Origin: a virus
DNA: 64,000 nt
Direction: 5' to 3' (one strand)
IMG/VR virus record: IMGVR_UViG_3300036823_000117
Coordinates: 1-64,000 of that record
Part shown: positions 5,640 to 28,736 of the stretch, in pieces
Position numbering within the stretch: position 1 is the stretch's first letter
Layout of the letters: each line of letters starts with the position of its first letter
Position numbers and translations under genes: made by a program
Notes under the pieces: model-generated
The model's database searches: none
What the model saw: only the letters and a program-made list of their open reading frames with translations
What the model was told of the DNA's origin: nothing

Positions 5640-5640
5640 G

Positions 5641-6501
5641 TCACACGGCGTCCGCGAGTGCGGCTTGAGGGGTTTCGCGGGTCCGGCGGGTGCCGTTGCC
5701 GGCCCGCCACCAGTCCGGGAGCTTCCGGCCGCCGCGGCCAGCGTTGATCGTCTCCGTGGCGGCCGCGGCGACACAGGTCTTGAGGGGCTTGCCGAACTGC
5801 CGCTTCAGGCCGCGGGCCTTCTCCAGGAGCCCGTACGAGCCGCCGGGGGCGACCTGCAGGCCGGCGATGGCGCGGGCGTCGTCGAGGACGGTGCCGTAGC
5901 GCTGCATCATCAGGCCGACGCCGCCGATGACGTGGTGGTCGAGGCCGGCGTAGCCGTAGGAGTCCTTGACGATGACCAGGGTGCGGGCGAGGCATTCCTC
6001 GCCGGCCTTCCTGTAGATCTCCTCAAGGGTCCTGACGGCGGAGATCGCCCCGTCGGACTTGCTGTCCAGCCCGATGCGCATCCCGCAGCTGACGACGATG
6101 TCGTTGATCGCGCATTCCTGGACGCGCCCGGCGGTGACGGCGATCTTGAACTTCTGGTACGCGCCGACTCCGAGGCGGTCGTTGAGCTGGAGGAACAGGT
6201 CGCCTTCCTCAGGCTCCGTCAGGCCCTCGTATGCCTCGCATTCCAGCTGCATGTGGCCCATGCCGCGGATTTCCAGCGCCCGGACCCGGTGCTGGCCGTC
6301 CACGACCATCCACTTCTTGGCGCGGAGGTTCACGGTCGGGTGGCCGAGCTTGTCGGGATCCAGGTTCGCGGCGATCTTGTTGGCGTGCGCGGGGTTGTAG
6401 TCCCGCTGCGCGACCGGTGACACGGCCATGTCGGCGATGGGGATCCACCGCATAGCGGCCCTGCGGGTGATGCGCACGGCGGTATCCTCGAGTGTGGTCA
6501 C
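5641..6501 (-). CDS. DGQHR/ParB-like N-terminal domain protein (DUF6551-like)
   Basis: QRDYN...VVDGQHRVRAL...EEGDLFLQLN. Confidence 0.8.
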   Translation of the reverse strand: MTTLEDTAVRITRRAAMRWIPIADMAVSPVAQRDYNPAHANKIAANLDPDKLGHPTVNLRAKKWMVVDGQHRVRALEIRGMGHMQLECEAYEGLTEPEEGDLFLQLNDRLGVGAYQKFKIAVTAGRVQECAINDIVVSCGMRIGLDSKSDGAISAVRTLEEIYRKAGEECLARTLVIVKDSYGYAGLDHHVIGGVGLMMQRYGTVLDDARAIAGLQVAPGGSYGLLEKARGLKRQFGKPLKTCVAAAATETINAGRGGRKLPDWWRAGNGTRRTRETPQAALADAV

Positions 6502-7439
6502 TGGGTGATCTCCTTCATCTTCTGCAGGTCTCTTTTCAACCGGTTGATGGCCCGGGTTGTGCGGGTGAGGGAGGTCACCCAGCCATGGATCAGGGCCGGG
6601 TCAAGGTCTGCGGGGTCGACGAACTCCACTCCCATGGCCAGGCCCTCCAGCGCCGCGACCGTGCCTTGCACGATCTGGTCCGAGTCGCGGCCGTGGTTCT
6701 TGCGGGTCACCTCATCGGCGGGGATCACGATCGCCTCTCGCCTGATGAGGTCCCTGACATATGGCTCCGACCGGCCGATGGCGTCGGCGATCTGCCGGGA
6801 CGTGTGACCGCCGGCGGCCATTCCCCTAATGACGCCAAGGCGCTGGCCGATGGCGGCGAAGCTGCGGTCGCCGGGGTCGGGGGCGTCGGGGTAGTCCGGG
6901 ACTGCCGGCCGCCGGCCGCCGTCCGGGATGACCACGTGGTCGAAGCCGAGGCGGCGGGCCACGCTGACCCGGGACAGGACGCCTTGCGCGCGGCCTGCGG
7001 CGAGCGCCGCCTCGAACGCCTCGTCGGTGATGCCGTCAGCGAGGTTGTAGATCCCCGCTGACCGGCCGTTGCCACCGGGATACAGGTCGTTCCTGGAGAC
7101 GTAGTCCGTCGCGCAGGGAATCCCGAGAGCGTCGAGGCTGTGGCCGCCGCGGGTCTGGATCGTGCCGGCTGCCTGGCCGGCGCGCAGCGCGACCCCGAGG
7201 GTCCTGTCGCCGCGGCGCTGAAGCTCGGCGGCGGCAAGCCGGGCCTCGGGTCCGAGGTGCGCGTCGCGGACGGCGACGCGGATGTCTTCCGCGGCCGCCC
7301 GGCAGCCGCAGATCGCGGGGATGTCGCCGCGCATGGCGGCCTCGCCCAGGCGGAGGCGGACCTGGTCGCAGGCTTCCCGGACGTCGGCGACGCTGGCGAA
7401 CTCGCACGGCGGCACGTCCCGGGCCAGCAACGCCGTCAC
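6498..7439 (-). CDS. hypothetical protein with HTH
   Basis: GHTSRQIADAIGRSEPYVRDLI; GTGA-coupled. Confidence 0.7.
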   Translation of the reverse strand: MTALLARDVPPCEFASVADVREACDQVRLRLGEAAMRGDIPAICGCRAAAEDIRVAVRDAHLGPEARLAAAELQRRGDRTLGVALRAGQAAGTIQTRGGHSLDALGIPCATDYVSRNDLYPGGNGRSAGIYNLADGITDEAFEAALAAGRAQGVLSRVSVARRLGFDHVVIPDGGRRPAVPDYPDAPDPGDRSFAAIGQRLGVIRGMAAGGHTSRQIADAIGRSEPYVRDLIRREAIVIPADEVTRKNHGRDSDQIVQGTVAALEGLAMGVEFVDPADLDPALIHGWVTSLTRTTRAINRLKRDLQKMKEITQ

Positions 7440-7729
7440 GCCGCGACCTTCTTCTTCGCGGGCCGGGCGATTCGCCGGGCCGGGCTGACTACCTCGAAGA
7501 AGTCGTCGAAGCCGAGCCCGGGGAACGCGTCGATGATGCAGGCGATGACCTGCTCGCCGGGTGCGTGCTGGCCGTTGAGGAGCCTGCTGAGGGTCCACCT
7601 GCTGAGGCGGGTGTGCTCGGCCTGGAGGGTGGCGGTGGTCAGACCGCGCTGCCGGCAATGGCGCTCGAACTGCGCGCCGCGGAACCGGATTTTCGGCAGC
7701 GGCAGCGGGGGCTCGTCGTTGCGGTGCAT
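7436..7729 (-). CDS. Cro-like XRE HTH protein
   Basis: LSRWTLSRLLNGQHAPG; first gene of the leftward operon, divergent from repressor. Confidence 0.75.
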   Translation of the reverse strand: MHRNDEPPLPLPKIRFRGAQFERHCRQRGLTTATLQAEHTRLSRWTLSRLLNGQHAPGEQVIACIIDAFPGLGFDDFFEVVSPARRIARPAKKKVAA

Positions 7730-7920
7730 GCGCAGCAAGCTACCACGGCTGGCGTCGCGGCGCATGCACCGCAACGCTTTTGGCTGGTCAACCGGCCGGG
7801 TTTTTTCGGCACCCCGAACGGCCTGGCGTGCAAGCATGCACCGTCGGGTCTCAGAGTGAGACGTGAGGCGCCTGTTGCCACCGGGGTTTTGTGCGCGGTG
7901 CTATGGTGCGTGCATGCACA
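7720..7920. promoter_or_regulatory. Lysis/lysogeny switch with GCATGCAC-type operators and leaderless promoters
   Basis: GTGCAAGCATGCAC (~7828), GTGCGTGCATGCAC (~7906), partial copies ~7724 and ~7761; extended -10 elements 6-7 nt before each ATG. Confidence 0.65.
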
Positions 7921-8351
7921 CGTGGGACAAGGAACTACTCCGGCGCCTGCTGATCCTCATCGTGGACGAGACAGGCATATCCCAGCGGAAGCTCGCTGAC
8001 CTGGCCGGAGTCCACCATGCGCAGGTATCCCGGTGGAAATCAGGGATGCACCGGCCGGACTACGAGAGCATGGCCCGCCTCGGCGCGGCTCTCCGCAGCG
8101 GCTACCCGCAGCTGCCTGACATGACCCAGGCCCTGCTCGCGGCCACCGGTCGCGGCGCCCCGGACGCCCCGGCCGGCGATGCCATCCCTGACGACGCCCC
8201 GCTCTGCACCTTTGAGCAGTCGATCCTTACGGAGACCGAGATCAGTGACGCCACGAAAGCACAACTGATCAACGTCCACCGCAAGGGCAAGCACGTGAAC
8301 TGCCGGCTCACCACCGAGGCGAGCTCAGCGGCCACGGCCGCCTGCTTATAG
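7914..8351 (+). CDS. immunity repressor (XRE HTH)
   Basis: GISQRKLADLAGVHHAQVSRWKSG..RPD. Confidence 0.82.
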   Translation: MHTWDKELLRRLLILIVDETGISQRKLADLAGVHHAQVSRWKSGMHRPDYESMARLGAALRSGYPQLPDMTQALLAATGRGAPDAPAGDAIPDDAPLCTFEQSILTETEISDATKAQLINVHRKGKHVNCRLTTEASSAATAACL

Positions 8352-8675
8352 GTCAGCGACCGACCGCAGCCGTGGCTCGCCCTCGCCGCCGGATCCCGGC
8401 CGGCCGGCCATGATCGCCCGGGTGAGCGCCATCTCGGTGGCGTGATACTCGTCGTCGCTGACGATGCGCTCGCCCGGCTTCAGCCGCGGCCCGCTGAAGT
8501 GCCGGAATGCCGTCCAGATGATCGCGCCTAGTGCGGCGGTGATTGCCCCGCCGTTCAGCAGCGCGTGGATCTGAGGGGTGAGGCGCAGGATCATTCCGGC
8601 GAACAGGTTGAGCGCCCACAGCAGGGCGGCCGCCGCCCAGGGCAGCCAGACTGCTGCCACGTCCCGCATTGTCAT
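8346..8675 (-). CDS. two-TM membrane protein
   Basis: Two hydrophobic segments. Confidence 0.65.
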   Translation of the reverse strand: MTMRDVAAVWLPWAAAALLWALNLFAGMILRLTPQIHALLNGGAITAALGAIIWTAFRHFSGPRLKPGERIVSDDEYHATEMALTRAIMAGRPGSGGEGEPRLRSVADL

Positions 8676-8720
8676 TCTTTGTTGTCCCCTCGCGCAGATC
8701 TGGTACCTGTGTGGCATCTG

Positions 8721-8900
8721 GTGCGCAAGTGGCCCCCGGTCAAGGTCTGCTTACCTTAGGCTGACCAGCGATCACTGCGCACAGTAATCAGATAATTGCA
8801 AGGAGTGACACGCTGTGATCGCACATAAGGCGCGGCGGGGCGGCAGCGCTCATGGTTCCTTGACCGGGAAGCCACCTGCGTGCCGCGTGCCCGCCGCGCC
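8721..8900 (-). ncRNA. candidate structured RNA leader
   Basis: Nested inverted repeats 8725-8745/8858-8880 and ~8769-8780/8810-8822. Confidence 0.4.
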
Positions 8901-9091
8901 GTTCGTGCCCGCGCCCTGGGTCTCGAGGCCGGGAGCTCCACTCTCAGTGTTACGCGATTCCGGTTGAATCCGCTACCAAAGCGAAGCGTTTTGATTGTCA
9001 ACCTTCAGAAATCTGCGAAGTATTTCCGATACTTGCCGTTCGCATGTGCGTGACGCAATCCCCTAACTCAGGGGCGCCGCAATCCGCGCGC

Positions 9092-9352
9092 CTACACCGG
9101 CCGGGAGTGCCGCTGCATCCGGCAGTGCGCGGTGTCCTGCTGGACCCGCCAGTCCGCGAGGACGCTCGCCATGACCGACACGAGGACCGGGAGGGGCTTG
9201 CCCGTCTCAGGGTTCGCCGTCGCCTGGACGCCGGGGTCGTCGCGGAGCGCCGCGGTGACCCGGAACCCGTGCACGCTGATGTCCCACTCGGCGTAGGTGT
9301 CGATGAGCTCCTGGAGCCGGAACGACCGGCCGAGGGGCTGGATGCCGCTCAT
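9092..9352 (-). CDS. hypothetical protein
   Basis: ATGA-coupled. Confidence 0.5.
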   Translation of the reverse strand: MSGIQPLGRSFRLQELIDTYAEWDISVHGFRVTAALRDDPGVQATANPETGKPLPVLVSVMASVLADWRVQQDTAHCRMQRHSRPV

Positions 9353-9744
9353 GACTGCCTCGCTGACGCGGGCACCGGGATGGCGTCCTGGATGCCGAGG
9401 AAGAACCCGAGGAGCTCGTGGTCGCCGGCGTAGACGGCGTAGGCCGGGGCTCCGGGACCGCGGGTCTCGCGGAGGTTGCCGCCTTTGCGGATGGCGTGCC
9501 ACCCGCCGCGCCAGCTGTACCAGATCTTCCAGTCCGGGAACTGGTTGCGGAGTTCCCACAGCCACTGGGAGCGGGCCTCGGCGAGGGCGCCCTCGATCGC
9601 GGCCGCGATGGCTGACGGCGCGGCGGGAGACGATTCCAGCGGCGGCAAGGAGCCCGCCTCCCGCCGCGCGTCTTCCCGACCCGAGGGGCGCCGGGGGTCA
9701 TCGGATACGTCCGGGGTTGCGCCTAATATGCTCCGTGCCGCCAT
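9349..9744 (-). CDS. hypothetical protein (FPDWKIWYS..GGWHA.R motif)
   Basis: Trp-rich motif; divergent from GntR gene. Confidence 0.6.
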   Translation of the reverse strand: MAARSILGATPDVSDDPRRPSGREDARREAGSLPPLESSPAAPSAIAAAIEGALAEARSQWLWELRNQFPDWKIWYSWRGGWHAIRKGGNLRETRGPGAPAYAVYAGDHELLGFFLGIQDAIPVPASARQS

Positions 9745-9859
9745 GCACCTACGGTAACGCTGGTGCTACCGGTTTGACCATAGAGGACATGGTGTTCGTA
9801 TAGCGCGTCGTCCTCGCCGGGCGATGGCAGCTGCAGGCGGTCCGCTTAAGTTGCCGGGC

Positions 9860-10105
9860 ATGGAGATCGACCGGTTCAGCGGGGTGCCCGCTTACAAGCA
9901 GGTGGCGGCGTGGCTGCGGGAGCGGATCCGGTCGGGTGAGCTGGCGGACCGGCTGCCGTCGGCGAAGGCGATCACTGAGGAGGCAGGCGTGGCGCCGTTC
10001 ACCGCGATCAAGGCGCTGCGGCTGCTGCGGTCGGAAGGTTACGCGCGGGTCTCGCCCGGGCTCGGGACATGGGTTGCGCCGCAGGAGTCGTGGCCGACGG
10101 ATTAA
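9860..10105 (+). CDS. GntR-family wHTH regulator
   Basis: PAYKQVAAWLRERIRSGEL..RLPS...GLGTWV. Confidence 0.88.
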   Translation: MEIDRFSGVPAYKQVAAWLRERIRSGELADRLPSAKAITEEAGVAPFTAIKALRLLRSEGYARVSPGLGTWVAPQESWPTD

Positions 10106-10293
10106 GCCGGCTAGCGGACGTTATTTAGCCTCGCATCGGGAGCAGGCGGGCACATTCCGACAACGCATATCTCAGACCCGCTTGCACCGTCCGCAATGTC
10201 AGTTCACTGTGGGTAGATGGCGGCGCACACTCGGAAGTCGGACGTGCCGTGCCGCAAACACCCCTGACCCCCTCGCCGGAGGAGACAACAAGC

Positions 10294-11115
10294 ATGCCCA
10301 AAACCGACACGTACCCGGTACAGACCACCGGCACGTTAGTCCTCGTCCACATCTCGAAAATCCACCCGAACCAGCGGAACGTCCGCAGCGAGCTCGGCGA
10401 TCTCACCGACCTGGCCGCGTCGGTCAAGTCCCGGGGAGTCGAGGTCCCCCTTATCGCCTACCCGCACCCCGACGACGACGGCCACGTCATCCTCATCGAC
10501 GGGCACCGCCGCTGGGCCGCCGCGGGCATCGCGGGCCTTGAGGAAATCCCCGTCACGCTCCGGGCCGTCCCCGCCCGGGCCGAGGCGGTCAAGCTGATGC
10601 TCGTCACCGGCCTCCACGGCCAGGACCTGTCCCCCATGGACAAGGCCCGCGGGTTCGGTGAACTGGCGGACGCAGGGATGAACGGGCCGCAGATCGCGAA
10701 AGCGATCGGGCAGTCAACCGCGACGGTATCGACCTACCTGACGCTCCTCCATCTCGACGCCGCGTCCCAGAGACGCGTCGATCGCGGCGACGTCTCCGTT
10801 GCCGACGGGGTAGCCGCCGTCCGCGAAACCCGGGCGAAGGAGCGGAAGAGGACCGGGAAGTCCGACCAGCGGGAAACCATGGCCGCCACCTGGGAACCAG
10901 AGCACTTCACCTGGCAGCACCCCCTGGCCCGGAAAGCCGCGAGCTTCTGCGACGCCCGAAGGCACAACGCCCGCCGGCGACTCGGCGGCGCAGCGTGCGG
11001 GGTGTGCTTCGAGGACGCCATCCGGCAGGACGCCAAAGTTGTGCTCCTGACCGAGATGAACCAGCAGGCGGACGTCAAGTTCATGCCGCCGGCACCGCTC
11101 GCGCACACAGGCTGA
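10294..11115 (+). CDS. ParB/RepB/Spo0J family protein
   Basis: IHPNQRNVR, LIDGHRRWAAA, DLSPMDKA, HTH IAKAIGQSTATVS; GGAGG RBS. Confidence 0.88.
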   Translation: MPKTDTYPVQTTGTLVLVHISKIHPNQRNVRSELGDLTDLAASVKSRGVEVPLIAYPHPDDDGHVILIDGHRRWAAAGIAGLEEIPVTLRAVPARAEAVKLMLVTGLHGQDLSPMDKARGFGELADAGMNGPQIAKAIGQSTATVSTYLTLLHLDAASQRRVDRGDVSVADGVAAVRETRAKERKRTGKSDQRETMAATWEPEHFTWQHPLARKAASFCDARRHNARRRLGGAACGVCFEDAIRQDAKVVLLTEMNQQADVKFMPPAPLAHTG

Positions 11116-18433: not shown

Positions 18434-18573
18434 ACCCGGTCATCTCGCTGGTGATCTTCGCCATAATCGGCGTCGGCGTCGTGCTGCTGTTCCTCGGGTT
18501 CGAGCGCAATGACCCGGACACTGACTCCGGCCGCGACTTCCCCCGCGGCCGGCCATCTTCGGGCGGTGGCTGA
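18430..18573 (+). CDS. small membrane protein
   Basis: MNPVISLVIFAIIGVGVVLLFLGF. Confidence 0.55.
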   Translation: MNPVISLVIFAIIGVGVVLLFLGFERNDPDTDSGRDFPRGRPSSGGG

Positions 18574-19115
18574 TGCCCCCGCCATGCACCTGCCCGAGCA
18601 ACTCCGGCGGCAAGAAGCTCGCGGCCGGCGGCCTTGTTGTCGTCGCGCTGTTCGCTGCAGGCCACGCCAAGCCTGGCCACGCCGCCAAGCCCGCGGCCGC
18701 AGTTGTCGCTGATGCTGCCCGCCCGGCCGATAGTGACCGCGGCGCTGTAGCTGTCGCGTGGGCCCGCCGCCAGATCGGGGTCGCGTACCTGTGGGGCGGC
18801 ACCGGGCGGGGCGGCTTCGACTGCTCGGGACTGGTCTACGAGGCATGGCGGCACGCCGGGGTCAGCATTCCCCGGACCACGTTCAAGCAGTGGCCGGCAT
18901 TGCGTCACATCTCCCGAAGCCAACTCCGGCCGGGTGACCTGATCTTCTACGCCGGGTCGGACGGCACGCAGGCCAACCCGGGTCACGTCGTCATGTACAT
19001 CGGCGGCGGCTGGGTAATCCAGGCATTCGAGACCGGCACCAACGTGATGCTGACCCGGCTCGCCGACGTCAACGCCGGCCCGCTGACCGGCTACGCCCGG
19101 CCGGGGGGTGCGTAG
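18573..19115 (+). CDS. secreted NlpC/P60 peptidoglycan endopeptidase
   Basis: IGVAYLWGG...FDCSGLV...PGDLIFY...GHVVMYIG; N-terminal hydrophobic segment. Confidence 0.93.
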   Translation: MPPPCTCPSNSGGKKLAAGGLVVVALFAAGHAKPGHAAKPAAAVVADAARPADSDRGAVAVAWARRQIGVAYLWGGTGRGGFDCSGLVYEAWRHAGVSIPRTTFKQWPALRHISRSQLRPGDLIFYAGSDGTQANPGHVVMYIGGGWVIQAFETGTNVMLTRLADVNAGPLTGYARPGGA

Positions 19116-19117
19116 CC

Positions 19118-19657
19118 ATGGGATGCAAGCGCCACGGCAAGAGCAGCAGCGGAGGCGGCGTTGCCGCTGTCGCTGCGGTCGTTGTCGGCGTGGCCATGGC
19201 CAGCGGCGCCCACCACGGCAAGCCCGGCGACCATCCGGCGGTCGTCGCCGACGCGGTCGCGCCTCCCCCGCCCCCGGCGACGCGCACGGTGGCGCATGGC
19301 GCGTTCCCCGGGCGCCGCGCCTGGGCGGCCGACTTCCTCCGCGCCGCCGGCCTGCCGGTCACCACGTGCAACGTCAACGCGATCACCGCCCAGGCAGCCG
19401 CCGAGAACAGCAACGCCCGGTTTAACCCGCTGGACACCGAAAGGCAGGAGCCGGGCAACACGCTCTACAACTCCGCCGGCGTCCGCAACTACGTCTCGCT
19501 CGCCCAGGGCCTTCACGCCACTGTCGTGACGCTCTACAACGGCCACTACCCCGGCGTCATCGCCGCGCTCCGCGCCGGCCACAACGCCGAAGCCGTCGCC
19601 CGCGCCATCTGGGTCCCCCACGTGTGGGGCACCCAGCCCTTCTCCGCCTCCTGCTGA
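19118..19657 (+). CDS. secreted lysozyme-like cell-wall hydrolase (putative)
   Basis: AAAE...FNPLDT...NSAGVRNY.S...G..AT; signal-like N-terminus. Confidence 0.6.
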   Translation: MGCKRHGKSSSGGGVAAVAAVVVGVAMASGAHHGKPGDHPAVVADAVAPPPPPATRTVAHGAFPGRRAWAADFLRAAGLPVTTCNVNAITAQAAAENSNARFNPLDTERQEPGNTLYNSAGVRNYVSLAQGLHATVVTLYNGHYPGVIAALRAGHNAEAVARAIWVPHVWGTQPFSASC

Positions 19658-19697
19658 CCGGGACCGACCCGGCCAGCGCAACCCGAAAGGAACCGCA

Positions 19698-19901
19698 GTG
19701 AACCCGACCGCCGCGACCGACTTCGTCGCCAAGGCATGCACCAACAAGACGTGCTGGCACCAGTACGCCATGGGCCGCCTCAACAACGCCGGCCACCAGT
19801 TCGCCAACATCGGCGCGCACGGCGGCTGGCTCCTCGTCCTCGCCCTGGTCGCCCTGGTCGCCGTCATCGTCTGGCGTGCCAAGACCCGCAGCAGCAACTG
19901 A
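19698..19901 (+). CDS. small membrane protein
   Basis: GAAAGGA RBS; C-terminal TM. Confidence 0.6.
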   Translation: MNPTAATDFVAKACTNKTCWHQYAMGRLNNAGHQFANIGAHGGWLLVLALVALVAVIVWRAKTRSSN

Positions 19902-19941
19902 CCGACGCCCGCCCGCGACCCGCCAACCAAGGAGGCCAGCG

Positions 19942-20088
19942 ATGCATACCGCTGCCGTCGCCCATCACGCCGCCAGCCACAGCGGCGACGCCATCGCCGT
20001 GGTGGTCATCGTCATCGTCCTCGCCGTCCTCAACCACATGTGGGCCAACGCCAGGCAGCGCCGGCGGGCCCGCGACCTCGAGAACTAG
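19942..20088 (+). CDS. small membrane protein
   Basis: AAGGAGG RBS; single TM. Confidence 0.6.
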   Translation: MHTAAVAHHAASHSGDAIAVVVIVIVLAVLNHMWANARQRRRARDLEN

Positions 20089-20114
20089 CCGACCACCCGA
20101 AGGGAGATCCCGAG

Positions 20115-20450
20115 ATGACGACCACGACAGCCGACACGGACTGGTCCACGGAAGCCGAGGACGCCATCCGGGACTACCTCTCGAATGGCGACAGCAAGCG
20201 GGCCCTGAACCGCGCGCTCCACACCCTGCAAGCCCAGTTGGCCATCCTGCGGCACGCCCGCAAGGGGCGCCCATCCGATGGCCAGCACCTCGACGCGCAC
20301 CTCGCCGGCACGGTCCTGGCCATTGCCGTCCAGGTCGGCCGGCACGCCCGGCCCGACGATTTCCCCGGCAGGCCCCGCGGCTATGACCTGCTGACCGTGT
20401 TCCAGGCAGCTTACGAAGCAGCACTCGCTCACCCCGGAGAGGGGGAATGA
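20115..20450 (+). CDS. hypothetical protein
   Basis: RBS, high GC3. Confidence 0.65.
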   Translation: MTTTTADTDWSTEAEDAIRDYLSNGDSKRALNRALHTLQAQLAILRHARKGRPSDGQHLDAHLAGTVLAIAVQVGRHARPDDFPGRPRGYDLLTVFQAAYEAALAHPGEGE

Positions 20451-20454
20451 CGAC

Positions 20455-21102
20455 ATGGGTACCGCAGGCGCCATTGAGGCGCTCCGGGGCGTGTTCCGCG
20501 GCGCCGACGACTCTGGCGGCTGGGAGGACATCCCGGCCCCGGAGCCGGCGCTGGAGCGCGATCCCGATGACACGACCGAACTTCCCGCCCTCACCGACCG
20601 ACCGGCGGTCGTGGCCCAGCAGGCCGAGATGACCTACGCCCGGCACCTGCTGGCCTCTTACCGCCACGTCCGCCGCATGGCGAAGGACGAGGAGCAGCGG
20701 GAAGGCAGCTGGGTCCGCCGCGCCCTGGACGCCCGGTGGTCGATCCAGGACGACTTCGACTACGCCACCGGCCGGAAATGGGTTCCGCCGGGCGGGGAGG
20801 GCGGGTTCGCGGAGCAGTCCGGGGTCCTGTACTGGGCGCTGATCGGCCGCCGTGGCGTGGCTACCGCGGGGTTCAAGCGGTGGATCTACTCCCGGCCGAC
20901 CCACTGGGTTCTTTACAGGGCCGCGTGGCTTGCCGTGGACCTGTGCGTCCTCGCCGGCCTCGGCCACCGGTCCCTCGCCGAGCACATCGCCTACGCCATC
21001 GCTGTCCCCATCGCACTGGTCCTCGCCGGCCTCATGCTCGCCCGCCCACGCCACGTCCACACCGAAGACGAGGAAATCGTCGAGGAAGAAGTCCCGTCAT
21101 GA
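20455..21102 (+). CDS. membrane protein
   Basis: Two C-terminal TMs. Confidence 0.7.
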   Translation: MGTAGAIEALRGVFRGADDSGGWEDIPAPEPALERDPDDTTELPALTDRPAVVAQQAEMTYARHLLASYRHVRRMAKDEEQREGSWVRRALDARWSIQDDFDYATGRKWVPPGGEGGFAEQSGVLYWALIGRRGVATAGFKRWIYSRPTHWVLYRAAWLAVDLCVLAGLGHRSLAEHIAYAIAVPIALVLAGLMLARPRHVHTEDEEIVEEEVPS

Positions 21103-21815
21103 AGAACCTGAGCCTGTCGTTCATCGACCCGAACGTGATGCTGCTGCTGGCCATCCTGCTGCCGTCATGCCTGATCTTCTGGTTCTTCGACGTCAAGAAG
21201 ATGCGGCGTCCCGTCGCGGTCGGGTTCTCGCTGGCCGCCGCACTGCTGGTCATCGGCGTGAGCACCTGGCAGGACTCGCTGGCGTCGCTGATCAGCACCC
21301 CCCGGTCCCTGGCCGTGCTCGTCATCGTCGCGACGGCGTCGATCTGCATGTTCGCCGTCCACCTCGGCTCCGGGAAGAAGATGAAGCTCAGCCTCCGCCG
21401 GGGCGACGCCCCGGCGGCCGGCAAGCAGGGCAAGGACCGGTACCACCACGTGTGGACCCACGTCGCCGGCGCCATCGCCGGGACGACCGCGGCGCTGCTG
21501 TTCGCCGACGGGATCAACTTCCTCCGCGCCGTCGGCAAGGCCCCGTCGGGCGCCGGGAGCGCGCTGACCACCACGATGCACCGGGTGGCCAGCGGCAAGG
21601 CCGCCGCGGCGGTCCAGGCGGGCCACGGCCTGCCGCCCACCGCGATGCTCGGCGCCGTCGTGGCGGGCCTCGCCGTCCTCGTGTACTTCGCCCGCCGTCA
21701 CCCGACCGTCCGCACCGAGCCGAAGGCCAAGGCCGCCGTCCGCGGCGCCCCCACCCGGGCCGCCATCCCGTCAGGTCCGCCTCCGCAGGCGGCCATAGAC
21801 CGAAGGGCCCACTGA
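21099..21815 (+). CDS. multi-pass membrane protein (spread-protein-like)
   Basis: About five hydrophobic helices; upstream of FtsK. Confidence 0.7.
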   Translation: MKNLSLSFIDPNVMLLLAILLPSCLIFWFFDVKKMRRPVAVGFSLAAALLVIGVSTWQDSLASLISTPRSLAVLVIVATASICMFAVHLGSGKKMKLSLRRGDAPAAGKQGKDRYHHVWTHVAGAIAGTTAALLFADGINFLRAVGKAPSGAGSALTTTMHRVASGKAAAAVQAGHGLPPTAMLGAVVAGLAVLVYFARRHPTVRTEPKAKAAVRGAPTRAAIPSGPPPQAAIDRRAH

Positions 21816-21818
21816 GCC

Positions 21819-21971
21819 ATGCTGAAGAAAGTCATCACCTGGGGCATCGTCATCTTCGTCATCTACTACCTGGTGAGTAACCCGGGCGGCGCCGCCAACG
21901 TCGTTCATTCGGCGTTCGACGGCATGAAGACCGTCGGCCATTCCTTCTCCGGGTTCTGGACGAGCCTGTAA
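21819..21971 (+). CDS. small membrane protein
   Basis: MLKKVITWGIVIFVIYYLVSNPGGAANVVHSAFDG..; TAATG-coupled to FtsK. Confidence 0.65.
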   Translation: MLKKVITWGIVIFVIYYLVSNPGGAANVVHSAFDGMKTVGHSFSGFWTSL

Positions 21972-23938
21972 TGACCAGCCAGCCGGGAGGAGCCCGCCAC
22001 GCAGCCGCCGAGCACCGCGCCATCCTGGCGCCTGCCGGCTGGATGATCGCGGCGTGGATCTGTGCGAACGCGTTTACCCGCGCTCACGGCAACGACCCGG
22101 TTGAGCTGGCCGTGTTCGCTGATGCAGGCGTCGCGGTGTGGGCGTGGTTCGCCCGCATCCGCCACCTGCCCGCGGCGGCCATGACCGACAGCGGCCGGGA
22201 AGCCCGGCTGCGGCGGTACGCGTGGCGCTGCTATATCGCAGGCGCGATCTGGCTGGCCGCCGCATCCGCCGTGTTCGGCCCGACGTGGTGGATGGACCTT
22301 TTCCTGGTCATCGGCGGCCTGGTCCTCGCATCGCCGCACCTGTACCGCAACCAGATCGACCACTCCGAAGGCCCGAAGGTCATCGCCGGGGTCATCGCTC
22401 CCGCCGGGGAGCAGTCCGCGCCGCCACGCCAGCAGCCGGCCCGGTCGCAGGCACCCCAGCGGCCAGGCACCCCCCGGCAGTACGCCGCCCCGGGTACCAC
22501 GACCCTCCGGCCGGCCGCCAAGCCGCGGCCGCGGCCGACCGCCGACCCGGCCCGCGACGCCATCACCCGCGTGCTCCGCGAGTTCAAGATCGACGCGAAA
22601 GTCACCGGGTGCATCACCGGGCCCGCGGTCCTGCAGTACCAGATGACACCCGGTCCCGGCGTCAAGGTCGAGCGGATCACGCAGCTGACCGCGAACTTCG
22701 CCATGGCCCTCGGTCTCGGCAGATCGTCCGTGCGGATGATCGCCCCGGTGCCCGGCCGGTCCGTCATCGGGCTGGAAATCCCCCGCGCACCCGAGGACCG
22801 GCAGGTCGTCGCCCTCCGCGAAGTCCTTGAGTCCCCGGACATGCTCGCCGACCCCCACCCCCTGACCGTGCCCCTCGGCGTCGACAACGAGGGAAACGTC
22901 GTCACGCACGCCCTGCACAAGGGACCGCACACCCTGATGGCGGGTGCGACCGGCGCGGGCAAGTCGGTCAGCCTCAACGGCGTGATCGTGTCAATCCTGG
23001 TCCGCGCCACCCCGGCCCAGGTCCGGCTCCTGATGATCGACCCGAAGCGCGTCGAGCTCGCCGCTTACTCCGGCGTCCCGCACCTCCTCGGCCCGATCAT
23101 CACCAACCCTGTCGTGGCTGCCCAGCGTCTCGCCTGGGTGTGCGAGCAGATGGAAGCCCGCTACGACGCCATGGCCGCCGCCCACGTCAAGCACATCGAC
23201 GACTACAACAAGATCGACGGAGCCGACCCGTGGCCGTACTGGCTCGTCATCGTCGACGAGCTCGCCGACCTGATGATGGTCAGCAAGCAGAAGGTCAAGG
23301 ACATCGAGGTCCCCGACGTCGAGGACTGCATCGCCCGGATCAGCCAGCTCGCCCGGGCGTGCGGCATCCACCTCCTGCTCGCCACGCAGCGGCCCACCGT
23401 GGACGTCGTAACCGGCCTGATCAAGGCCAACGTCCCGTGCCGGATCGCGTTCGCCGTGGCCAGCCTTACTGACTCGCGGGTCATCCTCGACGCGCCTGGC
23501 GCTGAGCGGCTTAACGGGCAGGGCGACGGGCTGTTCCTCCCGATGGGCGCGAAGGACGCCATCCGCTTCCAGGGCGCCTTTGTCACCGAGGCCGAGATCA
23601 AGCAGGTCGTCGCCGAGTGCGTGGCCCAGGTAGCCCCGCCGTCTGCGCCAGTCCGCGGAAAGGTCATCCCCGCCGCGGTCGAGGCGCCCAGGCCTGAGCT
23701 TGACCCGGAACTGGTGCAGCAGGCCAGAGACCTCGTCGTCGCGACACAGTTCGGGTCGGTGGCGATGATCTCGCGGAAACTCCGCGTCGGCTTCGTCGAG
23801 GCCGGCGCCATCATGGCCGCCCTGGAACTTCAGGGGATCGTCGGGCCCGAGCCGGAAGACAGGTCGAAGGCCAGGGACGTCCTGGTCCGGCCGCAACCCA
23901 CGGAAGCGGCCCCGGCTGCGGAGGAAGAGGACCACTGA
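21971..23938 (+). CDS. FtsK/SpoIIIE DNA translocase (TM, alpha/beta motor, gamma wHTH)
   Basis: GATGAGKS, MIDPKRVEL, VIVDELADLMM, LATQRP, GAERLNGQGD, gamma SRKLRVGF..A. Confidence 0.95.
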   Translation: MTSQPGGARHAAAEHRAILAPAGWMIAAWICANAFTRAHGNDPVELAVFADAGVAVWAWFARIRHLPAAAMTDSGREARLRRYAWRCYIAGAIWLAAASAVFGPTWWMDLFLVIGGLVLASPHLYRNQIDHSEGPKVIAGVIAPAGEQSAPPRQQPARSQAPQRPGTPRQYAAPGTTTLRPAAKPRPRPTADPARDAITRVLREFKIDAKVTGCITGPAVLQYQMTPGPGVKVERITQLTANFAMALGLGRSSVRMIAPVPGRSVIGLEIPRAPEDRQVVALREVLESPDMLADPHPLTVPLGVDNEGNVVTHALHKGPHTLMAGATGAGKSVSLNGVIVSILVRATPAQVRLLMIDPKRVELAAYSGVPHLLGPIITNPVVAAQRLAWVCEQMEARYDAMAAAHVKHIDDYNKIDGADPWPYWLVIVDELADLMMVSKQKVKDIEVPDVEDCIARISQLARACGIHLLLATQRPTVDVVTGLIKANVPCRIAFAVASLTDSRVILDAPGAERLNGQGDGLFLPMGAKDAIRFQGAFVTEAEIKQVVAECVAQVAPPSAPVRGKVIPAAVEAPRPELDPELVQQARDLVVATQFGSVAMISRKLRVGFVEAGAIMAALELQGIVGPEPEDRSKARDVLVRPQPTEAAPAAEEEDH

Positions 23939-24198
23939 TGCCTAGGCCCAGGGAAACGATGCTTGGCCAGCCGATCCAGGTTCGCGCCGGACTCCAGGCC
24001 ACCTGCCGGACCTGCTCCTCGCGCGGCGTCAGGGGCGGCGGCCGCCTCGTCACCGACGGGACGGAGATCGCAGACGTCACCCAGGAGACCCGGTTCAACG
24101 GGCGGTTCACCGTCACCACCGGGCGTGCCGCTGTCTTGCTGGACTGCCCGGACTGCGGCAGCCCTGTCCAGTTCGCCGTACCCAATATCAAGATCTGA
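23938..24198 (+). CDS. small zinc-ribbon protein
   Basis: CRTC...CPDC. Confidence 0.6.
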   Translation: MPRPRETMLGQPIQVRAGLQATCRTCSSRGVRGGGRLVTDGTEIADVTQETRFNGRFTVTTGRAAVLLDCPDCGSPVQFAVPNIKI

Positions 24199-24209
24199 GA
24201 GGCAGCCTG

Positions 24210-24530
24210 ATGTCCCCCGTCCTCATCCTCGCCGCCATCGCCGCCGCCCTCGTGCTCGTGTACGTCATCTCGAAGGCCGACGCGTGGATGCCCGTCACGG
24301 TCCTGGGCCTCTCCGGCGCCGCCTGCTACTACGGGGTGTCGAGTTGGCTCAGGAAGACGCCGGCCGCGGCCAGGCCGCCCGCGCCGAAGATCGTGACCCA
24401 CGTCATCACCCACGTGGTCACCCGCCCGGGCAAGCCCACGCTGACCGGAGGCGAGATCACCCTGCTGCTCATCGTCGGCGGCGTCCTGGCCCTCGCTTAC
24501 CTGATCAACCGCACCCGCAGGAGCAGCTAG
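24210..24530 (+). CDS. three-TM membrane protein
   Basis: Hydrophobic segments. Confidence 0.7.
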   Translation: MSPVLILAAIAAALVLVYVISKADAWMPVTVLGLSGAACYYGVSSWLRKTPAAARPPAPKIVTHVITHVVTRPGKPTLTGGEITLLLIVGGVLALAYLINRTRRSS

Positions 24531-24532
24531 CC

Positions 24533-24967
24533 ATGGGCATCTTCGGAGCCAAGCGCGCCCGCTTCACCGACACCTACCAGACCTGGACGGCCTGCTTCGC
24601 CGAGCCGGTCGTGGCCCGGTCCTCCGACATGGAGGACGACGACCTCATCGTCGGCGCCCGCGCTTACGGCGCCCGGTTCGACTCACCGTCTGCGCCCGGC
24701 GCTGCGCTGAGCATCTGGGCGTACCCGGCGCCCGCCGGGCCCGGGACCCCGGACGGCACCATCGTCCTCGCCTACCGGGTCCACTACTCGGTCGGCTCAT
24801 GGGGGACCGCCCTGTACCACTGCGACGTCGCGTGCGGCGAGTGGTACGACAACCTCCCCGCCGCCGAGGCGGACGCCGTCAGATTCATCGCCGGACTCAT
24901 CAGTTCCGGTCCCCACACGGACCGGGTTCCGGACTTCTACACCGACTGGGATGGGCGGCGATTCTGA
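24533..24967 (+). CDS. hypothetical protein
   Basis: ORF with RBS. Confidence 0.6.
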   Translation: MGIFGAKRARFTDTYQTWTACFAEPVVARSSDMEDDDLIVGARAYGARFDSPSAPGAALSIWAYPAPAGPGTPDGTIVLAYRVHYSVGSWGTALYHCDVACGEWYDNLPAAEADAVRFIAGLISSGPHTDRVPDFYTDWDGRRF

Positions 24968-25070
24968 TGCCCCCCTCCCGGCCCGGAAGCCTCAAGGCGC
25001 GGATAGATCCGCCCGCGGATGGATCCGCGCCCGCGCGCGGGAACTACCACGACGAAAGCGGACGAGTCAA

Positions 25071-25226
25071 GTGAGCACTGACCTAATCGCCTTCCTCGCG
25101 TGGCTCACGGTCGTCGTCACGGTCGTCGTGATCTACCGCCGGTCCCACCGCAACTGGCCCCCTGACCCCAATCCGCCCCATCCGCAACAGAACCCCAGCG
25201 ACCCAGACGAAGAGGCGTCACCATGA
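25071..25226 (+). CDS. small membrane protein
   Basis: Single TM; coupled. Confidence 0.5.
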   Translation: MSTDLIAFLAWLTVVVTVVVIYRRSHRNWPPDPNPPHPQQNPSDPDEEASP

Positions 25227-26284
25227 CCGCCATGCTGCATGACATCCCGTGGGAGGTCCCCGCGTCGCTGGCCGGCGCTGCCCTGCTGCTGCACACCGCC
25301 CGGCGCGTGTTCCGCGCCATCCGCGACCGCCAGCCGGCCGGCTCACGGCACGGCCTGCGCACCGCCATCATCGCGCTCGGCGCGGCGCTGGCCCCCGTGT
25401 TCTTCACCGACATGTTCATGACCGTCGTCAACCTGCTCGGCCCGTCGTTCCACGGGTGGGCGTGGACGGTCCCCGCTGCGACAGAAGGCAGCTTCATCTT
25501 CCTGTACCTCCTCGACCTGTACCTCCTCGCCGAGGGCAAGCCGATGGGATGGCTCCGCTTCGCGCCGTACCCGTTCGCGCTCGCGTCGCTCGTGCTGAAC
25601 GTCTACAGCTCGTTCGGCGACGCACCGGGCATGCTCGGCCACGGCGTCGTCACTGTCGCGTTCTTCCTGCCGCTCCTGGCGGGCGAGGCGGCCGTCAAGT
25701 CGATGTCCGTCAGCGACAAGGAGGTCGCTCTGGCCGACGAGATGAAAGCGGCCCGCCAGTACGCCATTGACCTGGTACGCGACCAGCTGGGGTTCTTCTG
25801 GCGGCTCCGCCCGTCAGTCCCGACGCTGCTCCGCACCCGCATCGTCAGCGGCCGCCTCCCCGGCCATGTGGCCCGCGCGGTCCGCGACGGCGTAGCCGCC
25901 TGCGACGCGACAGTCTGGGAAGCCGCCGTCGAGAAAATGGTCACCGATGCGCTGACGCAGCGCGCCAAGATGGCCGCCGCTGTCGTGCGACAGGAACGCG
26001 ACATCCAGCAGACCGCCGATGCGACAACCGACACGACAACGGATGCGACAACCGGTGCGACACGGGATGCGACACCAGAGCGACAGGCCGCGCGACAGCC
26101 CAAGCGACAACTCACCGCCAGCGAGCGCGACAAGAACCGCGCGAAAGCCGCCCGCATTGTCGCGGCCGAGCCGGCCATCCGCGCTGAGGATCTGGCCGCC
26201 CGGTGCGGTGTCACGAAGCGGTCGGCTGAGAGGTGGAAGGCCGAGATGAGCCGCCCCAACCTCCAACTCGCCGAGAGCTCGTAA
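25223..26284 (+). CDS. DUF2637/Spd-like membrane protein with C-terminal HTH
   Basis: WAWTVPAATEG, SLVLNV, several TMs; C-terminal DLAARCGVTKRSAERWK. Confidence 0.7.
   Translation: MTAMLHDIPWEVPASLAGAALLLHTARRVFRAIRDRQPAGSRHGLRTAIIALGAALAPVFFTDMFMTVVNLLGPSFHGWAWTVPAATEGSFIFLYLLDLYLLAEGKPMGWLRFAPYPFALASLVLNVYSSFGDAPGMLGHGVVTVAFFLPLLAGEAAVKSMSVSDKEVALADEMKAARQYAIDLVRDQLGFFWRLRPSVPTLLRTRIVSGRLPGHVARAVRDGVAACDATVWEAAVEKMVTDALTQRAKMAAAVVRQERDIQQTADATTDTTTDATTGATRDATPERQAARQPKRQLTASERDKNRAKAARIVAAEPAIRAEDLAARCGVTKRSAERWKAEMSRPNLQLAESS
25988..26132 (+). repeat. phased CGACA direct-repeat array (clt/TRS-like)
   Basis: CGACA at 25988, 25999, 26022, 26034, 26046, 26058, 26070, 26081, 26093, 26105, 26128. 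Confidence 0.8.
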
Positions 26285-27472: not shown

Positions 27473-27801
27473 TTGAGGACGAACGCGGCGCCTTCTATTC
27501 CTGGGAGTACCAGTTGGATACCGCACGCGTTCTCCGCTACACGGGTCTCCGCGACCAGATCCACCCCCTCGACGCCGTCGCCTGCACCTACGACGGCCGG
27601 GCCCACTTCGACGAGTCATCCCGCCGCGACCGCGAGATCCACGAGAACGCCGTCCACGGACCGTGGGTCACCGAGGCCGGCCTGGTCGCCATCATCGACT
27701 TGCGGCCCCAGCTGGAACGCATGGGATGCGCCCCCACAGACCCGGCGCTGCCCGACGACATCCCCCAGCGCTGGGAGCGCAACCCCCTGACCTACTCGTA
27801 A
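27469..27801 (+). CDS. hypothetical protein
   Basis: TTGA-coupled. Confidence 0.55.
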   Translation: MIEDERGAFYSWEYQLDTARVLRYTGLRDQIHPLDAVACTYDGRAHFDESSRRDREIHENAVHGPWVTEAGLVAIIDLRPQLERMGCAPTDPALPDDIPQRWERNPLTYS

Positions 27802-27875
27802 CACCCTGTAGTGTCCCGTCACGTTCCGTGTACCCTCTGCCTCACCTGCATCATCGTGGCGCGGAGGTGGTCAGC

Positions 27876-28736
27876 ATGAACAGCGACGGGCAGCGGCCCT
27901 GCGCCCGCGGGGTTTGGTGCGGGGCGGCCACCATCACGGTCGAGGACGGCCAGCGCGTCGTCACCCCCGCGTGGACATACCGCCCATTTTGCGAACCGTG
28001 TGAGCGGCACCTCGTCGGCCTCCTCGAAGGCATCCCCGACGACCCGGCCCGCAGCTTCGCGCAGCTCTACGGCCGGCTCGGCGCCGCGATCGGTGACCCG
28101 CAGCAAGCCGACGTCCACGTGCCCGCCCCGTTCGGACCGCAGACACCCATCCGCGAGGACATCGACGCCTGCATGCGGCTGACCGCCGTCACGCTCCGCG
28201 GCTGGGCGGCACGCACCAGGGCGGCCGCCCGCCTCACCGCGGCCCGCCACGCACCAGGCACCGCCGACGGAGTCGCCGAAGACGCCCGGGTGCTCGCGCT
28301 CAACATCACCGTCCTGCTGTCTCTCCAGCCCGGGTGGATGCGCCGCACCTACCGGACCCCCCTGTCCGACGAGCTGGCCGGCTGGCTCGCAGACGATGAG
28401 ATCATCAGCGTCTCCGACCACGACGTCACCGTCATGACCGAGGTTGACGGGGAAACCGCCGGCCAGGAATTGCTGCACCTGCACTACCTCGGCCGCAGGT
28501 GCTTGCTGGAGACCAACCCGCCGCCGGAGATATTGGTCATGCCGTGCCGGAAGTGCACCCACAGAGAGCTGCGCCGGGCTTACCCCGACGGAGAACGCGA
28601 CCTGTACTCCCGGTGCGCCCGGTGCAGCGACGAGATGACCGCACAGCAGTACGACGTGAACGCCCGCCGCTGGCGCGCGTACTACCAGGCCAAGCAGCGG
28701 AACCGTGCTGTTCTCGGGCCCGCAGTCGCAGCCTGA
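27876..28736 (+). CDS. zinc-binding protein, candidate late-gene regulator
   Basis: Multiple CxxC; immediately precedes a promoter plus terminator. Confidence 0.65.
   Translation: MNSDGQRPCARGVWCGAATITVEDGQRVVTPAWTYRPFCEPCERHLVGLLEGIPDDPARSFAQLYGRLGAAIGDPQQADVHVPAPFGPQTPIREDIDACMRLTAVTLRGWAARTRAAARLTAARHAPGTADGVAEDARVLALNITVLLSLQPGWMRRTYRTPLSDELAGWLADDEIISVSDHDVTVMTEVDGETAGQELLHLHYLGRRCLLETNPPPEILVMPCRKCTHRELRRAYPDGERDLYSRCARCSDEMTAQQYDVNARRWRAYYQAKQRNRAVLGPAVAA

Follow-up and report, generated by a model that had tools for sequence, protein, structure and literature searches.

The gamma domain of Escherichia coli FtsK reads FtsK-orienting polar sequences (KOPS) with Arg1300, Glu1303 and Glu1306, and the triple mutant R1300A/E1303A/E1306A has been described as 'blind' to KOPS (PMC2680272). 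In conjugative elements of actinomycetes, TraB and the Spd proteins are reported to form a membrane DNA-translocation complex for intramycelial spreading; several proteins of the complex bind peptidoglycan, TraB reads 8-bp repeats in clt, and the C-terminal domain of SpdB2 interacts with TraB's DNA-recognising C-terminal part (PMC4447253). According to the same source, actinophages phiC31 and VWB carry SpdB2 homologues, which were proposed to help spread phage DNA. FtsK-like genes have long been noted in phages themselves (Cluster J mycobacteriophages, Streptomyces phages and Bacillus phages), with no function assigned in the literature that we found. The Cluster J proteins are described as having no membrane domain, as bearing divergent and variable gammas through which they are presumed to act on phage DNA, and as being of unknown function (PMC3706429). 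For phage FtsK-like genes in general, DNA translocation in infection, control of sporulation and manipulation of development have been suggested (PMC4113786; PMC10117723). Here we describe an ftsK gene in a 64,000-nucleotide stretch of viral DNA from soil (the window), which comprises bases 1-64000 of the 118,586-bp IMG/VR record IMGVR_UViG_3300036823_000117, 97% complete by CheckV. As judged from sequence comparison, its product is neither the septal FtsK of a host nor TraB.

Besides a terminase gene (42980-44491), the window encodes an SPP1-type portal, a capsid protein, a tail tube protein and the start of a 1516-residue tape-measure-like open reading frame (ORF). The remainder of the record encodes a Dit protein, a glycosyltransferase, a GDSL lipase, a TROVE/Ro protein, a large serine recombinase, a Xer-like tyrosine recombinase, a DnaN-like protein, a Dam methylase and 34 tRNA genes. 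Because ftsK lies in a virus record with terminase, portal, capsid and tail genes, it is not chromosomal. An earlier note on this DNA had called the protein a chromosomal-type FtsK; this describes its architecture and not its location, since the gene is a phage gene. No cultured relative or clue to the host was found: the large terminase subunit was less than 30% identical to that of any cultured phage, and megablast of 24 kb of the phage DNA against phages gave no match. Near-identical DNA was present in soil metagenomes from two studies. The portal protein had no match in five related FtsK phage records, and the FtsK lineage is therefore common to otherwise unrelated phages.

The gene and its domains are arranged as follows; helix and confidence (pLDDT) assignments are from an AlphaFold2 (AF2) model, and GC3 is the GC content at third codon positions.
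21971-23938, plus strand: phage ftsK (P0001), 655 residues, with Pfam alpha, beta and gamma domains; GC3 0.90
21989-22348, plus strand: N-terminal membrane domain, residues 7-126, four predicted helices, not recognised as FtsK_4TM
22349-22540, plus strand: short linker rich in Pro, Gln and Ala, residues 127-190 (~65 residues), pLDDT <50 at 134-136 and 140-166
22541-22783, plus strand: FtsK alpha, residues 191-271 (PF17854, E 4.4e-21, 75.4 bits against a cut-off of 22.9)
22814-23398, plus strand: FtsK beta (RecA-like) motor, residues 282-476 (PF01580, E 8.7e-51, 172.9 bits)
22943-22966, plus strand: Walker A motif, GATGAGKS
23708-23887, plus strand: FtsK gamma winged helix, residues 580-639 (PF09397, E 4.3e-13, 49.2 bits against a cut-off of 30.6)
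23792-23830, plus strand: recognition helix H3, residues 608-620, FVEAGAIMAALEL, by ungapped alignment to the E. coli gamma

The alpha, beta and gamma domains of septal FtsK, which the earlier note had recognised, were all found by Pfam, and its short linker was confirmed by a disordered stretch in the AF2 model that runs up to alpha at about residue 191. The model, built on 28 relatives (mean pLDDT 78.7), places long, hydrophobic N-terminal helices at 7-37, 43-63, 76-100 and 106-126, with pLDDT of about 78-88 in 10-residue blocks except in the 61-80 loop. It places gamma helices at 579-592, 597-604 and 608-620, followed by a less confident wing; a second disordered stretch is at 557-573. Gamma scored 54 bits in a six-frame PF09397 search and was aligned by phmmer to the PDB entries 2J5O, 2VE8/2VE9, 2J5P and 5DCF (E 2e-4 to 4e-3). 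The FtsK_4TM model (PF13491) matched neither this protein nor its short-type relatives and is present in cellular FtsKs. Against the NCBIfam FtsK model PRK10263, which is built on a 1355-position enterobacterial protein, the score was 309.4 bits (cut-off 1566). The residues of Walker A, Walker B (DE, 429-430) and the TQRP of the arginine-finger region (472-475) are invariant among relatives (alignment A1), and the pump is predicted to be catalytically intact. The gene is translationally coupled at both ends, through an ATGA overlap with the stop of an upstream 50-residue ORF and a TGATG overlap with the next start. PADLOC reported similarity to SspH and mad8 that was restricted to the motor domain, and no defence assignment was drawn from it.

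We compared gamma with 80 chromosomal ftsK loci taken from about 25 named actinobacterial genera, of which 77 matched a motif regular expression and 3 did not. E. coli numbering was anchored on RQFRIGYNR as 1289-1297 (as given in PMC5052618), so that R602 of the window protein corresponds to 1289, V609 to 1296, E610 to 1297, A613 to 1300, A616 to 1303 and E619 to 1306; in the helix-3 region, the phmmer alignment is ungapped against both the E. coli and P. aeruginosa structures. The gamma string on which the earlier note was based, AMISRKLRVGFVEAGAIM, lies at 23762-23815 (residues 598-615), and the gamma match falls within the interval 23700-23890 given there. After the stretch QRKL(R/K)(V/I)GF, all 77 matched chromosomal FtsKs read AKAGRLMD, in agreement with the actinobacterial sequence given in the earlier note, whereas the window reads VEAGAIMA. 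The replacement of residues in the KOPS-reading region that the note described was found in helix 3: Lys to Glu at 1297, Arg to Ala at 1300 and Asp to Ala at 1303, relative to the cellular consensus. In addition, gamma has Ala replaced by Val, Gln by Ser, Ser by Ala and Thr by Val, and the wing is one residue longer.

Among the E. coli KOPS readers Arg1300, Glu1303 and Glu1306, only Glu1306 is kept, and the window protein naturally carries two of the three 'blind' substitutions together with a charge reversal at 1297. Like the engineered alleles FtsK[R1300A], FtsK[E1303A] and the 'blind' triple mutant, it has Ala at the equivalents of 1300 and 1303; unlike them, it is natural, retains Glu1306 and has extra changes at 1284, 1285, 1288, 1296, 1297 and in the wing. 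R1289, R1292, G1294 and the aromatic residue at 1295 of the XerD-contacting R-x-x-R-[IV]-G-[FY] stretch are kept (RKLRVGFVE in the window). On this comparison, the window gamma is a domain that has lost the helix-3 side chains expected to read KOPS, with its fold and its R-K-L-R-V-G-F stretch kept.

Next, we examined variation at these positions among phages. A profile scan of IMG/VR gave 423 relatives, and all counts of viral loci given here come from 80 loci kept of the 423. Pooling 28 short-type proteins with 14 viral loci, after deduplication, gave 42 distinct phage-type gammas for comparison with the 77 cellular ones, with the following residues at each position.
Position 1296: cellular, A in 77; phage-type, A 36, V 3, S 1, K 1, T 1
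Position 1297: cellular, K in 77; phage-type, K 25, R 10, Q 3, E 1, Y 1, L 1, D 1
Position 1300: cellular, R in 77; phage-type, R 28, A 5, W 4, Q 2, E 1, D 1, S 1
Position 1303: cellular, D in 77; phage-type, D 39, A 1, H 1, E 1

Among the 42, only the window has Glu at 1297 and Ala at 1303, and 1297, 1300 and 1303 are invariant in the 77 cellular gammas; because of this, the rewriting of the helix exceeds chance drift. The scaffold residues Q1280, G1282, S1283, M1286, R1289, K1290, R1292, G1294, A1298, E1306 and G1312 are invariant in the phage set, as they are in the cellular set apart from a single Arg-to-Lys change at 1292. On a 91-row tree of FtsK proteins, Arg1300 changed at least nine times (15 rows out of the 75 in which gamma could be recognised), the basic residue at 1297 at least five times and the acidic residue at 1303 once, and none of these changes fell in a named cellular row. 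The regular expression for the gamma motif was matched by 30 of the 80 viral loci, and half of these (15 of 30) read AKAGRLMD. As far as sequences can tell, phage FtsK readers show a recurrent trend, and the window stands at its extreme end.

Contigs from the second soil study cover ftsK at about 96% identity, and those of one run span 23308-23899 with 24 differences; another run of that study has a more distant relative. Among the differences listed in the ORF, 15 of 19 are synonymous and 4 conservative (I30V, V118A, Q621K and I623V). Nine of the listed differences lie between 23659 and 23837 (seven synonymous), eight of these nine inside gamma (six synonymous), and no listed difference lies within residues 602-619. 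This mostly synonymous pattern argues that the variant is maintained and that gamma is not a decaying domain; the evidence is partial, and purifying selection on the window gamma is accordingly proposed as probable.

We then determined where the protein belongs among FtsKs. Its closest homologues, 640-710 residues long, match from end to end, the N-terminal domain included, and have no Pfam FtsK_4TM; the next are canonical FtsKs of 800-1050 residues with FtsK_4TM, about 54% identical over 72% of the query. Over motor and gamma, identity to actinobacterial chromosomal FtsK is 50-55%, and the two share the alpha/beta/gamma order, intact ATPase motifs and the R-x-x-R-[IV]-G-[FY] stretch. The window protein differs from the chromosomal type in being phage-borne, in its four-helix domain that is not recognised as FtsK_4TM, in its linker of about 65 residues, in its length (655 versus 800-1050 residues) and in the replacement of helix-3 residues that all 77 cellular FtsKs share. 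Many of the 80 viral loci are on records of 85-154 kb, several of them with direct terminal repeats and 100% complete. This short FtsK lineage, with four transmembrane (TM) helices of its own type, a short linker and alpha, beta and gamma domains, occurs in many viruses of about 50-150 kb from high-GC Actinomycetota.

In the first tree (91 rows, 92 having been chosen and one lost in trimming), the named cellular FtsKs formed one clade (97*), which included the three IMG/VR rows L007, L012 and L027. The query and P0002 were sisters (100*) and fell within a starred phage-only set in both trees; in the first, their stem measured 0.87 and the set comprised 21 phage-type rows. In the second tree, for which five Tra translocases of actinomycete integrative and conjugative elements (AICEs) served as outgroup, the query again fell in the FtsK clade, and AICE Tra lay on a far, very long and saturated branch. 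The AICE-rooted tree nests the phage set within cellular FtsKs and the first tree shows the reverse, so that the two rootings disagree on the direction of transfer between host and phage. By these placements, the window FtsK is a long branch in an old and diverse phage-borne lineage and not a recent capture from a host. The host derivation proposed in the earlier note is not upheld as a recent event; the nearest cellular proteins are actinobacterial chromosomal FtsKs.

Identity with TraB was considered and rejected. The NCBIfam TraB model (NF041214) gave 32.8 bits against a cut-off of 800, and the tree position is inside the FtsK clade, far from AICE Tra; the grouping inside TraB clades that was to tell against the earlier note was not seen, in a comparison that covered the five AICE Tra proteins, with pSVH1- and pIJ101-type TraB sequences left out. 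The phage pump resembles the TraB/Tra and Spd systems of the pSVH1 and pSAM2 type in being a membrane FtsK-family pump with a C-terminal winged-helix reader and multi-pass membrane neighbours, and in having peptidoglycan-interacting proteins and a GntR regulator in its vicinity. It is unlike TraB/Tra in its true FtsK alpha and gamma, its score below the TraB cut-off and the absence of a detected clt repeat array. Unlike AICEs, the window phage makes virions, and it has no RepSA, Nudix or other AICE genes.

The Cluster J proteins formed a separate clade in the trees. Like them (Omega gp203 and Thibault gp178), the window protein has a phage FtsK motor, at 47-51% identity, and its gene is in a temperate siphovirus-type genome of about 100-120 kb. 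By contrast, the Cluster J FtsKs are ORFs of 434-532 residues that have no N-terminal membrane domain and whose C-termini fail the gamma motif. The DUF2637 model PF10935 had no match in the three Cluster J records searched.

Three further loci came up in these comparisons. L007 from IMG/VR (FtsK ORF at 5532-9386) encodes a 1284-residue FtsK inside the Streptomyces cellular clade, reads AKAGQLMD (Arg1300 to Gln) and may be a recent capture or host flank in a provirus call. On Micromonospora maris pVMKU (NC_015409.1, locus L166), a genuine plasmid, an 822-residue 'DNA translocase FtsK' with gamma is encoded near ParAB and directly 3' of a type IV coupling-protein-like gene, showing that FtsK-type, non-TraB pumps are found on plasmids too. 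Tsukamurella 'plasmid 15' (NZ_LR134457.1, locus L167) has the surroundings of a chromosomal ftsK (RNase J, dapA, pgsA and CinA) and is probably a piece of a chromosome that was deposited as a plasmid.

The gene 1.3 kb downstream of ftsK encodes a candidate partner of the pump.
25223-26284, plus strand: P0121, 353 residues, DUF2637-type multi-pass membrane protein with a C-terminal helix-turn-helix (HTH)

Atlas features of P0121 scored 0.91-0.92 to DUF2637 clusters, and clusters of SpdB_N with HTH stood at ranks 15 and 27 (0.86-0.87). Of 33 homologues of P0121, 26 matched PF10935 (best E 3.4e-7) and 12 matched HTH_23, both at E <= 0.01. This moderate evidence indicates that P0121 is probably a DUF2637 member. 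PF10935 matched in 8 of 24 FtsK-bearing viral records, and in 7 of the 8 the match shared the strand of ftsK, at a distance of 0.75-2.5 kb. A hidden Markov model of the window DUF2637 subfamily (A2) added loci L039 and L040 and matched at none of the 80 chromosomal ftsK loci. In all, a DUF2637 gene is within about 2.5 kb of ftsK in the window and in at least nine other phage records or loci. The window phage resembles phiC31 and VWB as an actinophage with an Spd-type membrane protein, and here FtsK and DUF2637 are linked in about ten phage genomes; we know of no report of an FtsK pump beside the Spd-like gene of phiC31 or VWB. When the DUF2637 gene of the window and a canonical one from a phage were compared by tblastn with plasmid and phage collections, neither gave a match.

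A similar arrangement was found in conjugative elements. Of five actinomycete genomes searched, four had PF10935 matches (three Streptomyces and one Micromonospora), and 5 of the 18 DUF2637 matches, all in Streptomyces, came directly after a FtsK_SpoIIIE (Tra) ORF of about 450 residues. These five loci carry GntR regulators, and two have RepSA (L174, 844 bits; L176, 558 bits; cut-off 700); theirs is the layout of pSAM2-type AICEs. The suggestion in the earlier note of an independent origin of a TraB-like system gains from this mirrored pairing, and synteny alone speaks for it. A complex prediction for gamma (residues 560-655) with the cytoplasmic part of the DUF2637 protein (160-353), run without controls, scored 0.12 against a mark of 0.32 and has no bearing on whether the two bind.

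Taken together, these findings favour, at about an even chance, a phage-borne active FtsK pump that has lost KOPS reading and works with DUF2637 in a membrane DNA-translocation module. The most likely consequence would be that the pump no longer reads host polarity signals and loads on DNA without KOPS guidance, or with a different preference. From conserved synteny, its most likely partners are the DUF2637 membrane/HTH protein next to it, an NlpC/P60 wall hydrolase of the secreted type and several small membrane proteins encoded nearby. Such a module could move phage DNA at septa or cross-walls, analogous to the TraB/Tra-Spd apparatus of actinomycete conjugative elements and evolved separately. 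The sequence data establish what the protein is and how it is built, that it is encoded by a phage, which residues have changed, that such changes recur in phages, that the genes are linked and, on partial evidence, that selection is purifying; that KOPS are no longer read, that DUF2637 is the partner, and what is pumped in which direction are inferred. A bolder form, which we regard as quite unlikely, is that large temperate actinophages carry a self-made Tra/Spd counterpart, made up of a full FtsK pump with its own membrane anchor, a DUF2637 (Spd-type) membrane/HTH protein, a wall hydrolase and small membrane proteins, by which the phage genome would pass, without virions, from one hyphal compartment or cell to another; in the window's lineage, gamma would have been freed from host KOPS and tuned to phage DNA or to the DUF2637 partner.

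We found no description of a membrane-anchored FtsK paired with DUF2637 in phages in the open-access literature. What is new here is a natural allele that mimics engineered KOPS-defective substitutions and appears to be maintained by selection, the repeated change of the key reader Arg in phage FtsKs and not in cellular ones, and a conserved pairing of the pump with DUF2637, as is also seen beside the Tra translocases of conjugative elements. Should the module indeed move phage DNA across septa, it would allow virion-independent spread of a phage in multicellular bacteria, and an FtsK pump would have been recruited a second time, independently, for the horizontal movement of DNA. Otherwise, the gene is still a useful natural experiment on the evolution of gamma-domain specificity.

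Several points weigh against the proposed module. Single R1300A and E1303A mutants of E. coli FtsK are reported to retain residual KOPS recognition (PMC2680272); since the window also retains Glu1306, the label 'blind' may be too strong for its gamma. The loss of KOPS reading by gamma is a prediction from the comparison of residues, and we found no mapping of KOPS-reading residues in actinobacterial FtsK in the literature. Most phage FtsKs of the lineage retain the host-type AKAGRLMD helix, and the module must therefore generally tolerate host-type reading. As for the partner, the PF10935 scores of P0121 fell short of the cut-off of 22.8 bits (19.4 bits, E 5.7e-5, in the six-frame search; 18.7 bits for the protein by itself), and the hhalign match of its profile to the DUF2637 proteins of AICEs and phages was weak (E 0.19); the equation of DUF2637 with SpdB2 comes from the Atlas lead and synteny, not from alignment. 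Because 16 of the 24 FtsK phage records had no PF10935 match at E <= 0.01 (one of these 16, G001/L039, holds a divergent copy found with the A2 profile), the pairing of FtsK with DUF2637 is frequent and not obligatory. Finally, a mycelial lifestyle of the host is an assumption.

The earlier note had proposed a different fate for gamma, a retargeting to a new motif. In this reading, helix 3 would have come to read either an oriented motif specific to the phage or a site of the clt kind, and the pump would load on, and orient along, phage DNA only. Variation in phage gammas is indeed concentrated at the DNA-facing positions 1296, 1297, 1300, 1303, 1304, 1307 and 1308 on an invariant scaffold, the variant appears to be under purifying selection, and the sister protein P0002 has Tyr, Glu and His at the same three positions. 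Recognition of phage DNA by the Cluster J gammas, as presumed in PMC3706429, and of clt repeats by TraB (PMC4447253) would be precedents. However, Ala, Ala, Glu and Val remove hydrogen-bonding or basic side chains, and with them contacts, and add no obvious new readers.

The search for a target also told against retargeting. Strand skew of all 7- and 8-mers in the 118.6-kb genome gave none above |z| of about 4 and nothing beyond chance, in a genome whose size gives little statistical power for motif skew and from which a rare loading site could escape. In a single-switch polarity test, the only outstanding word was GGTTCGAG (18 versus 1), whose polarity is explained by its being the T-arm of the array of 34 tRNA genes; GGGNAGGG occurred 10 versus 6 times. 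The only short repeat cluster near ftsK was a 12-nt periodic coding repeat at 26009-26111, in the linker of the DUF2637 gene, where a GCGACAAC-type word in 4-5 copies encodes repeats rich in Thr, Asp and Ala. Its 8-bp word GCGACA[AC]C has four copies at 26021-26111 and is not enriched (12 found against 10.9 expected), which makes it a weak lead as a clt-like site, and no clt-like array of 8-bp repeats was found near ftsK beyond this coding repeat. With neither a skewed nor a clustered motif in the record, we consider a retargeted reader unlikely, and the claim in its original form is not upheld.

If the pump acted instead on host DNA or host division, by clearing the septum, aiding sporulation or trapping phage DNA in spores, it would be a host-takeover moron. 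In PHROGs, the FtsK/SpoIIIE-like proteins of phages are placed in the category 'moron, auxiliary metabolic gene and host takeover', and the roles in translocation during infection, sporulation or development proposed in reviews (PMC4113786; PMC10117723) are in line with this. Oriented work on a host chromosome is nevertheless disfavoured because the host-type KOPS readers are lost, and the DUF2637 linkage, which is absent from the 80 chromosomal ftsK loci, points to a dedicated module. Manipulation of the host is thus improbable in our estimate.

A role for gamma in activating recombination was weighed as well: the domain would be kept to activate the phage Xer-like enzyme, or host XerCD at a phage site, for dimer resolution or integration, with KOPS dispensable. 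In E. coli, residues 1289-1297 are reported to suffice for XerCD activation, with R1289 critical (PMC5052618), and KOPS-blind alleles to support XerCD-dif recombination still (PMC2680272). The window protein keeps the two Arg, the Gly and the aromatic residue of this stretch, and the phage has a Xer-like enzyme of 326 residues, a separate large serine recombinase and ParB. The retained stretch does not discriminate between explanations, however, because it is invariant in all FtsKs examined; moreover, the minimal peptide's N1296 and R1297 are replaced in the window. Only one of five related FtsK phage records had a full-length relative of the Xer-like enzyme, there is no ParA beside ParB, and a simple scan for AT-rich 28-mers gave three AT-rich spots, none of them a dif-like palindrome by eye. 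We hold recombinase activation to be improbable as well.

That gamma is a functionless relic under relaxed selection is very improbable: the window gamma has diverged further than any other in the set of 42 phage-type gammas, and the relatives P0023, P0037 and P0040 are without gamma, but PF09397 is above its cut-off, the AF2 helices are confident, the scaffold residues are invariant and most of the listed differences are synonymous.

The proposed translocation module also draws on the genes around ftsK, which sits in a plus-strand run that includes an NlpC/P60 gene, a signal-anchored protein and several membrane proteins of 50-240 residues. Upstream and downstream of ftsK, in order, are the following.
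9824-10105, plus strand: small GntR-type HTH regulator of the TraR/KorSA class (PF00392, E 1.3e-9), with a weak link to the module
18573-19115, plus strand: NlpC/P60 peptidoglycan endopeptidase, secreted-type, with a hydrophobic N-terminus, RipC-like (PF00877, E 1.1e-22)
19118-19657, plus strand: signal-anchored protein, homologues in three related viral loci
19698-19901, 19876-20088 and 20455-21102, plus strand: small genes, mostly membrane or secreted (GC3 calls and hydropathy)
20040-20450, plus strand: small gene, homologues in four related viral loci
~21099-21815, plus strand: protein with 5-6 TM helices (hydropathy scan)
21819-21971, plus strand: 50-residue ORF with one TM helix (hydropathy scan)
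23938-24198, plus strand: Cys-rich ORF of 86 residues
24210-24530, plus strand: ORF with two TM helices
24951-25226, plus strand: ORF with one TM helix
27663-28736, plus strand: Cys-rich putative DNA-binding protein (phrog_1568, E 6e-7), kept downstream of ftsK in related phages

The small genes at 19118-21971 had no Pfam or PHROG matches, and the small ORFs between ftsK and the DUF2637 gene (23938-25226) had no family matches. Homologues of the NlpC/P60 protein lay within 8 kb of ftsK in 7 of the 80 viral loci, and the Cys-rich protein at 27663-28736 had tblastn matches in 9 of the 80. GntR homologues were found 5-8 kb upstream of ftsK in four viral loci, and GntR genes flank Tra in the AICE loci.

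Other genes of the record were noted in passing. The window starts within a C5 cytosine methyltransferase gene (1-1338, minus strand), which extends past the window start, and a PDDEXK-like DUF3799 protein is encoded at 3554-4429 (minus strand). A ParB-type protein with ParB_N and HTH_ParB is encoded at 10249-11115, with no ParA gene adjoining, and may serve the partition of an extrachromosomal prophage or another role; an HNH endonuclease gene at 46614-47396 lies between the terminase and portal genes. Beyond the window, the large serine recombinase is at G000 83622-85100 (L084 4622-6100), with the TROVE/Ro-like gene close by at 81167-82888. The Xer-like tyrosine recombinase (G000 87094-88074, L084 8094-9074; 326 residues) contains SAM_1 and Phage_integrase domains, and its best NCBIfam matches were XerC (127 bits) and XerD (114 bits), both below their cut-offs. 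The 34-tRNA array is on the minus strand at G000 ~88,500-93,320 (L084 9499-14319) and covers most amino acids.

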